Below, piece by piece: positions 51,178 to 51,917 of a stretch of 64,000 nucleotides of DNA. The position numbers and the translations under genes were made by a program. Position 1 is the first letter of the stretch. Each line of letters begins with the position of its first letter. The DNA is from Escherichia coli (GTDB lineage Bacteria > Pseudomonadota > Gammaproteobacteria > Enterobacterales > Enterobacteriaceae), in the NCBI RefSeq assembly GCF_003018255.1, contig NZ_CP027441.1; one strand, given 5' to 3'. The notes below the pieces were generated by a model. The model ran no database searches. It was not told the DNA's origin and worked only from the letters and a program-made list of their open reading frames with translations.

Positions 51178-51246
51178 ATGATATGGGAAAAACTTGCCAT
51201 GCTTACTGCAGGTGCATTTTTGATACTGGCAGTCCTGTGGGGGTAA
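51178..51246 (+). CDS. candidate 22-aa hydrophobic peptide MIWEKLAMLTAGAFLILAVLWG
   Basis: AGAGGGA Shine-Dalgarno 9 nt upstream; followed by a 9-bp-stem hairpin; below the ORF-track cutoff. Confidence 0.3.
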   Translation: MIWEKLAMLTAGAFLILAVLWG

Positions 51247-51312
51247 TAATATCCTGTTTATTAAAGGGCAGAAGGCGGTGCCCCTCTGCCCTTAAGTACG
51301 TTTCCGGGATTA

Positions 51313-51408
51313 TCAGTCAATAAGTTCCCGGATCAGTTCCAGAAGAGCTATCACTGCATTGACCACAGCAACAACTGCCCTGAGAACGATGATTAACAGG
51401 TTAATCAT
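51313..51408 (-). CDS. candidate DinQ/TisB-like type I toxin peptide (31 aa) MINLLIIVLRAVVAVVNAVIALLELIRELID
   Basis: Reverse-strand ORF with GGAG 7 nt upstream; single amphipathic transmembrane helix; ALLELIR matches the C-terminal part of E. coli DinQ as recalled; below the ORF-track cutoff. Confidence 0.5.
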   Translation of the reverse strand: MINLLIIVLRAVVAVVNAVIALLELIRELID

Positions 51409-51479
51409 CCGTTTCTCCGTCAATGGAGGAAATCACTGCTGCTTACTCTTACATTGCCTGTCACAACAGCTCTCTCATT

Positions 51480-51710
51480 GTTAGCTGAAAAGAGACTTCC
51501 TCCGGCCAGGTCTTTGAATAGCACAGATCCATAGTCCCGATGGATTGATGCGAAGGTAAGTCTCCAGACAAGGCTAACTTACTGATTATACTTGTTTCAG
51601 GCGATATCGCTACTCCCGGAATAATAGATTGTAACTGACAGATTGCGATCAGGTGAATATAACGCTATTCTGGTAACGTTAGTTGAAAAGAGACTTCCTC
51701 CGGTCAGAGC
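51480..51710. repeat. two about 30-bp direct repeats GTTAG(C/T)TGAAAAGAGACTTCCTCCGG(C/T)CAG, about 198 bp apart
   Basis: Copies at about 51480-51510 and 51678-51710, upstream (in reverse-strand sense) of the toxin-like ORF. Confidence 0.6.
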
Positions 51711-51734
51711 CACCAACTCCACCCCGGAATCGCA

Positions 51735-51768
51735 AAAAAAACCGGCCTCACCAGTCGGTTTTTTTGTA
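51735..51768. terminator. bidirectional terminator A8-CCG...CGG-T7
   Basis: AAAAAAAACCGGCCTCACCAGTCGGTTTTTTTG: stem flanked by A-run and T-run. Confidence 0.55.
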
Positions 51769-51917
51769 CCTGTCTCCCACCACCTTCTGCCGTTCGCTCT
51801 TCTCAGTGAAAATGTCCTGTTGAACTCATTCCTGTCCGGTTATTACCGGCGCTGATTCGCATTCATGCCACTCGACTTAATCCCGAAATTTATCCATTCA
51901 TCTATGGAGGAATCCCC

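Follow-up and report, generated by a model that had tools for sequence, protein, structure and literature searches.

A probable DqlB-AgrB type I toxin-antitoxin module with a shortened toxin mRNA leader on a pO113-like Escherichia coli plasmid

In the 64-kb window (the whole stretch of 64,000 nucleotides of Escherichia coli DNA that was analysed), we found a 31-codon gene on the minus strand, a divergent small RNA gene next to it on the plus strand, and a further small ORF that converges on the 31-codon gene (Table 1). The product of the 31-codon gene (MINLLIIVLRAVVAVVNAVIALLELIRELID), read from both strands, aligns from residue 1 to residue 31 with positions 1-31, i.e., the whole, of the NCBIfam model NF041473 ("DinQ-like type I toxin DqlB"). 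The score is 62.9 bits, above the curated equivalog cutoff of 35; the peptide stays under the cutoff of the DinQ equivalog NF041472 (23.1 vs 30 bits). A sequence-only reading of the same DNA had proposed a reverse-strand ORF of this length with a GGAG ribosome-binding site and a likeness to DinQ that included an ALLELIR motif. [quoted passage not shown]

The same reading took the locus to be unannotated, which does not hold for its close relatives. The exact protein sequence is in the public protein collection, where NCBI names it DqlB, on at least 1000 contigs; pO113 and many further RefSeq plasmids carry it under the annotation "DinQ-like type I toxin DqlB". A megablast search of 51100-51850 against PLSDB found near-identical DNA in pO113 (NC_007365.1) and in many large E. 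coli conjugative plasmids, whose records call the ORF dqlB. Differences between dqlB and its IncI1, IncK, IncX3, and IncL copies lie mostly at third codon positions (5/2/15 by codon position against IncX3, with 10 synonymous codon changes), and the ORF is therefore conserved as a protein, not only as DNA. A 36-aa extension from a TTG start was rejected; the NCBIfam model and the conserved Shine-Dalgarno (SD) sequence fit the 31-aa ATG start. No second dqlB copy was found in the 64-kb window by tblastn and Rfam scan.

Table 1. Features of the dqlB locus; positions are those of the 64-kb window.
Feature	Position	Strand	Basis
Conserved 34-aa small ORF with a basic N-terminus and one hydrophobic helix, outside the toxin-antitoxin module	51142..51246	+	tblastn, codon substitutions
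Hairpin, dqlB terminator; on the plus strand also the probable terminator of the upstream operon	51259..51298	both	inverted repeat, folds
dqlB coding sequence (31 aa and stop), DinQ-like type I membrane toxin	51313..51408	-	NCBIfam, RefSeq name, codon substitutions
Shine-Dalgarno GGAG, switch element 4	51415..51418	-	read from the sequence; aligns with the dinQ/dql SD
Anti-SD, switch element 3 (mRNA AGUGAUUUCCUCC), predicted to pair with the SD or element 2	51425..51437	-	inverted repeat, predicted folds
AgrB target site in the dqlB 5' UTR (proximal repeat)	51480..51509	-	repeat; alignment with dinQ G88-A119; strongest cognate duplex
Switch element 2, inside the AgrB target	51491-51503	-	alignment, predicted folds
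Switch element 1 (mRNA GGAGACUUACCUUC), predicted to pair with element 2 in the full-length transcript	51552..51565	-	MFE fold
dqlB promoter, -10 TATAAT (51590..51585), and inferred start G at 51578	51578..51590	-	alignment to dinQ
AgrB promoter, TTGCGA (51643-51648), 17-nt spacer, TATTCT (51666-51671)	51643..51671	+	conserved promoter alignment
AgrB antitoxin sRNA, about 90 nt	51678..51767	+	Rfam RF02891, consensus fold
AgrB 5' antisense segment (distal repeat), followed by an internal stem-loop and a Rho-independent terminator (51735-51765)	51678-51707	+	

The toxin gene is preceded by a long leader that aligns with that of dinQ. The TATAAT -10 element is conserved in all eight aligned loci, and the putative start G aligns with the mapped dinQ +1; the transcription starts of both dqlB and AgrB are placed by alignment to dinQ. 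A consensus scan also returned a minus-strand promoter, TTCACC-18-TACAAT (51657..51628), which we rejected in favor of the conserved TATAAT at the position of the mapped dinQ promoter. The GGAG lies six nt upstream of the dqlB ATG. In dinQ, four switch elements were defined by SHAPE and mutagenesis (PMC5066626); four elements of the dqlB leader align with them, element 1 being equivalent in position to dinQ U16-C28, and their predicted 1:2, 2:3, and 3:4 pairings are mutually exclusive.

According to ViennaRNA, the full-length mRNA has element 1 paired with element 2 and a closed SD hairpin, with P(SD unpaired) = 0.02. In an RNA cut at the equivalent of dinQ +44, element 2 is predicted to pair with element 3 and the SD to open (P = 0.61), a figure that is only indicative, i.e., the pairings are possible and need not occur, because the same model did not reproduce the positive control, the dinQ +44 RNA (predicted closed, P = 0.05, vs experimentally open). 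When the AgrB site of the truncated RNA is blocked, the SD closes again in the prediction (P = 0.00). Downstream of the gene, the hairpin that had been noted between the two convergent ORFs is present, with 17-bp arms and a predicted folding energy of -24 kcal/mol on either strand. Its stem covaries across the dinQ/dql family, with arms GGGCAGAGG/CCUUCUGCCC here, GGGCUAAGAG/CUCUUAGCCC in dinQ, and GGCCGGAGG/CCUCCGGCC in IncX3.

On the other side of dqlB are two direct repeats of 30 bp that are identical at 28 of 30 positions and start 198 bp apart; the chance expectation for such a pair in 1.2 kb is estimated at ~1e-9. The distal copy begins an sRNA gene. The Rfam model RF02891 (AgrB) matches 51679-51767 on the plus strand along its full length of 84 positions, with 51.7 bits against a gathering score of 40, and this is its sole match in the 64-kb window. 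The RNA extends from the distal repeat to the A-run/T-run hairpin, which the earlier reading had recognized as a terminator and which ends AgrB. In the consensus fold, five of the 21 predicted pairs are kept through changes on both sides. The start near 51678 is preceded by a promoter of the form TTGCNN-17-TAnnnT that is conserved in agrA, agrB, and all plasmid homologues. A weak match to Rfam OrzO-P (30.8 bits vs a gathering score of 60) is restricted to the terminator hairpin.

The proximal copy has a different role. In an alignment of eight toxin-strand sequences, it corresponds to dinQ G88-A119, the experimentally defined AgrB-binding site (PMC5066626). It lies downstream of the conserved -10 element and inferred start, and we therefore assign it as the AgrB target within the 170-nt dqlB 5' UTR, rather than as an agrA gene. 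The locus thus has a divergently encoded AgrB-type sRNA adjoining the toxin gene, whose 5' end is complementary to the toxin leader upstream of the SD. The recognition sequence varies among loci, yet it is matched within each locus compared. When duplexes between the repeat and toxin leaders were predicted, as had been suggested, the cognate pair was the strongest for the window AgrB (RNAduplex, -74.3 kcal/mol, compared with -54 to -66 for non-cognate leaders and -38.5 +/- 3.5 for a shuffled control). Across the whole cross-matrix, the strongest duplex of each row is either cognate or formed by members of one specificity group.

The dqlB leader is missing 36 nt relative to pO113 and every other aligned dinQ/dql leader. 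The deletion junction is at 51500-51509 (pO113 counterpart: about 6402-6437 in locus L001), and the deletion is flanked by two copies of a 9-bp direct repeat, TCCGGCCAG. The missing segment is the stem-loop SL2 (dinQ G57-U87); it is conserved throughout the family, with covariation, but has no assigned function and is not known to be required by the module. Its loss cuts the AgrB complementarity from 36-37 nt, as in pO113, to 30 nt, and the predicted AgrB duplex is ~20 kcal/mol weaker than that of pO113. The thermodynamic model also predicts that the processed mRNA opens the SD more readily after the deletion. The junction sequence was found in only three PLSDB plasmids (NZ_CP027451.1, NZ_AP027257.1, and NZ_AP027259.1).

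Regulation could therefore differ, or the module be weakened, through the loss of SL2 and the shorter pairing. The strongest form of this idea is that the locus is a weakened or misregulated remnant, in which the deletion has disabled toxin expression or processing and addiction has been lost in this plasmid lineage. The covarying conservation of SL2 elsewhere, the rarity of the junction, and the weaker duplex all point in this direction. However, the ORF, the SD, the four switch elements, both promoters, both terminators, and the 30-nt complementarity are intact, the latter is close to the 31 nt reported for dinQ-agrB, the switch still operates in the prediction, and all three plasmids with the junction still carry an annotated dqlB. 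We thus regard a remnant as unlikely, and a complete module as the better account of the locus.

The sequence-only reading had also described a 22-aa hydrophobic ORF converging on the toxin gene. This ORF is present (51178-51246) and belongs to a conserved gene. The 22-aa start itself was rejected; its ATG is absent or out of frame in the IncK2/Z and IncI1 homologues, and the conserved frame starts at 51142 and encodes 34 aa (MRKRKQKRDDNPMIWEKLAMLTAGAFLILAVLWG). Full-length homologues were found by tblastn in ~1500 plasmids of the IncI complex. In the 22-codon core, substitutions relative to the IncI1 homologue are distributed 6/1/17 by codon position, with nine synonymous codon changes, and this third-position bias argues for a real protein-coding gene. 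The convergent ORF is thus probably a genuine gene of 34 codons. It has no family match in NCBIfam, PHROGs, or Pfam, and a protein search with its 42-aa IncI1 homologue returned only "hypothetical protein" entries.

A real, conserved gene for a small membrane protein that converges on dqlB, both here and in an IncK2/Z plasmid, might act as a further toxin or work together with DqlB. Several observations make this very unlikely. In IncI1 plasmids, another ORF lies between the small ORF and dqlB, which indicates a neighbor rather than a part of the module; the dqlB loci of IncL and IncX3 plasmids have no such annotated gene beside dqlB; no antisense RNA family matches the small ORF; and its product has a GRAVY of -0.11, vs 1.98 for DqlB. 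We therefore treat the ORF as lying outside a two-component DqlB-AgrB module.

The region further upstream on the plus strand includes a 103-aa ORF (50859-51170), for which the public names "FlgM" and "Neurotensin receptor R8" look unreliable; its best match is to the ANR (AraC negative regulator) family, below cutoff (27.9 vs 32 bits). Among the plasmid neighbors are trbA, a DsbC-family gene where IncI1 plasmids have trbB, and trbC downstream, with epeA further upstream. The ORF at 51918-53198 (+) is an IncI1-type TrbA homologue that ends in the acidic repeat TETTETTET and has a partial match to DotM/IcmP (71.6 bits vs a cutoff of 230).

The chromosomal homologue dinQ is LexA-controlled, and a LexA box had been suggested as something to look for upstream of the toxin ORF. 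It is absent: there is no CTGT-N8-ACAG with one mismatch or fewer in 51178-51900, and a 20-mer consensus scan, with dinQ as the positive control, found no LexA operator in the promoter or the locus. The best 20-mer in 51570-51660 has three of the eight core positions mismatched and 6/20 consensus matches, vs one of eight and 15/20 for the dinQ site. In the absence of an operator, expression is expected to be constitutive and controlled after transcription, as would suit an addiction module better than an SOS gene. The opposite proposition, that DqlB is an SOS-induced stress toxin like chromosomal dinQ or tisB, could draw on the homology to dinQ and on one paper that predicted a weak, unverified LexA-like site (HI 11.64) in the IncI1 dqlB leader. 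With such a poor best site in the promoter region, with the counterpart of that predicted site (a CTGT-N8-CCAG motif) removed by the same 36-nt deletion, and with plasmid homologues that act as addiction modules, we find it highly improbable.

The reading in which each repeat belongs to its own antisense sRNA gene, with an agrA/agrB pair upstream of dqlB, was suggested by the tandem agrA and agrB of the chromosomal dinQ locus and by a spacing of 198 bp that resembles the chromosomal target-to-agrA distance (199 bp), but it is scarcely credible, as Rfam AgrB matches the distal copy only, even at E<=1, the proximal copy sits inside the mRNA leader at the dinQ AgrB-binding position with neither a plus-strand promoter nor a terminator flanking it, the chromosome has three copies vs two in the plasmid modules compared, and a study of the IncX3 module found agrB and no agrA (PMC12317039). 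In MG1655, the three copies are in the dinQ leader, the agrA start, and the agrB start (agrA and agrB copies 76% and 97% identical to the leader copy; start-to-start spacings 199 and 231 bp), and two Rfam hits are obtained. Each of the five plasmid modules compared has two copies, which are 187-234 bp apart in the IncL, IncX3, IncI1, and IncK2/Z loci. A permissive Rfam scan and the repeat comparison with MG1655 found no second sRNA (agrA) in the window locus, which has a single Rfam hit. The paired repeats and their spacing had thus been observed correctly, whereas the agrA/agrB roles given to them had not: the proximal copy is the target, and only the distal copy is an sRNA gene.

Based on these results, we consider the locus to be a complete DqlB-AgrB type I toxin-antitoxin module on a pO113-like IncI-type conjugative E. 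coli plasmid (probability about 0.9). By analogy with dinQ and the plasmid homologues, a sigma-70 promoter would drive a minus-strand mRNA that is ~323 nt long and extends from about 51578 to 51256. In its 170-nt leader, element 3 would pair with element 4 and shut the SD in a short hairpin while element 2 is occupied by element 1. Loss of the 5' end, as at +44 in dinQ, would let element 2 pair with element 3 and so open the SD, and translation would then yield a 31-aa hydrophobic helix that may damage the inner membrane. The divergent AgrB, presumably constitutive, would use its first 30 nt to pair with the part of the leader in which element 2 lies; this pairing may reclose the SD hairpin and would probably target the duplex for RNase III. 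After plasmid loss, AgrB would no longer be made, leftover toxin mRNA would be translated, and the plasmid-free cell would be killed (post-segregational killing). For this plasmid, processing, the relative stabilities of the two RNAs, toxicity, and the killing of plasmid-free cells are presumed; toxicity, neutralization by AgrB, and plasmid stabilization have been shown only for the homologues of pOXA-48 and pOXA-484.

The dql family, including dqlB, was named and its conserved leader described previously (Kristiansen et al., 2016), and dqlB is carried by 83% of IncB/O/K/Z and 67% of IncI1 plasmids (PMC12365149). The DqlB of the IncL plasmid pOXA-48 has been shown to be toxic, to be neutralized by agrB, and to kill cells that lose the plasmid (PMC12365149, 2025); the module of the IncX3 plasmid pOXA-484 is toxic, agrB-neutralized, and plasmid-stabilizing (PMC12317039, 2025). 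The window DqlB shares 81% of its residues with the IncL protein and 77% with the IncX3 protein. Like the present locus, the pOXA-48 module has a 31-aa toxin, a single divergent AgrB-type sRNA that begins with a repeat of part of the toxin leader, and no LexA box, and it adjoins trb genes on a conjugative plasmid. The leader/sRNA repeat is 22-37 nt long across the plasmid loci (35 nt for pOXA-48 according to PMC12365149), and the target-to-sRNA spacing of pOXA-48 is 188 bp, vs 198 bp here. The two differ in the recognition sequence (CGTCAATTGTTTAG... in pOXA-48, GTTAGYTGAAAAGAG... here) and in that the IncL leader keeps SL2; the IncL sRNA is too divergent to be matched by Rfam AgrB at E<=0.1. 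The pOXA-48 module has been tested by experiment, whereas this one is known from its sequence.

Within the IncI complex, pO113 and related plasmids share the identical toxin (RefSeq WP_000609151.1), the same AgrB, and the same neighbors, and pO113 and most relatives differ in having the 36 extra leader nucleotides and the longer AgrB complementarity. Between AgrB and trbA, IncI1 plasmids have a hok/pnd-type module that the window lacks at this position. In the IncK2/Z plasmid NZ_CP116070.1, two tandem dqlB-agrB modules are present (1378-2502), one with an IncI1-type AgrB recognition sequence and the other with that of the window, and this suggests that the two pairs work independently of each other.

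The K-12 dinQ-agrAB locus (PMC3567139; PMC5066626) has a homologous toxin with the ALLELIR core, leader elements 1-4, SL4, and the terminator, as well as a homologous sRNA, a divergent layout, and trans antisense pairing over ~30 nt. It differs in having a LexA box, two sRNA genes (agrA and agrB), and SL2. The zorO-orzO, tisB-istR-1, and hok-sok systems also combine a small membrane toxin with a leader-pairing sRNA and with a long, structured 5' UTR, which must be processed for translation to occur, but their toxins have no sequence homology to DqlB; in addition, the hok-sok antitoxin is encoded in cis and overlaps its target.

With the dql family defined in 2016, NCBIfam and Rfam models available, and experimental validation in 2025, this is a known system. 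The module has been named, is present in public plasmid records, and has been tested on related plasmids. The sequence-only reading is thus a correct rediscovery, with the identification right and the roles of the repeats misassigned. A second type I module was found at 40937-41244 on the minus strand, with a 50-aa Hok/Gef-like ORF (40937-41089) and a match to the Rfam sok antitoxin (41087-41244; 119.7 bits, gathering score 59).

The value of the finding lies mainly in annotation: an STEC-type virulence plasmid carries, besides hok/sok, another type I addiction module, which helps explain its stable inheritance. With a gene of only 96 nt and an antitoxin that is an RNA, such modules are readily overlooked. 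Two modest leads are the leader without SL2 and the conserved small ORF next to the module. That they represent a natural SL2-deletion allele of the dqlB leader and, adjacent to it, perhaps an undescribed small membrane protein of the IncI complex is a doubtful but possible proposition. Should this allele alter toxin control, it would offer a naturally occurring mutant in which the role of SL2 could be worked out.
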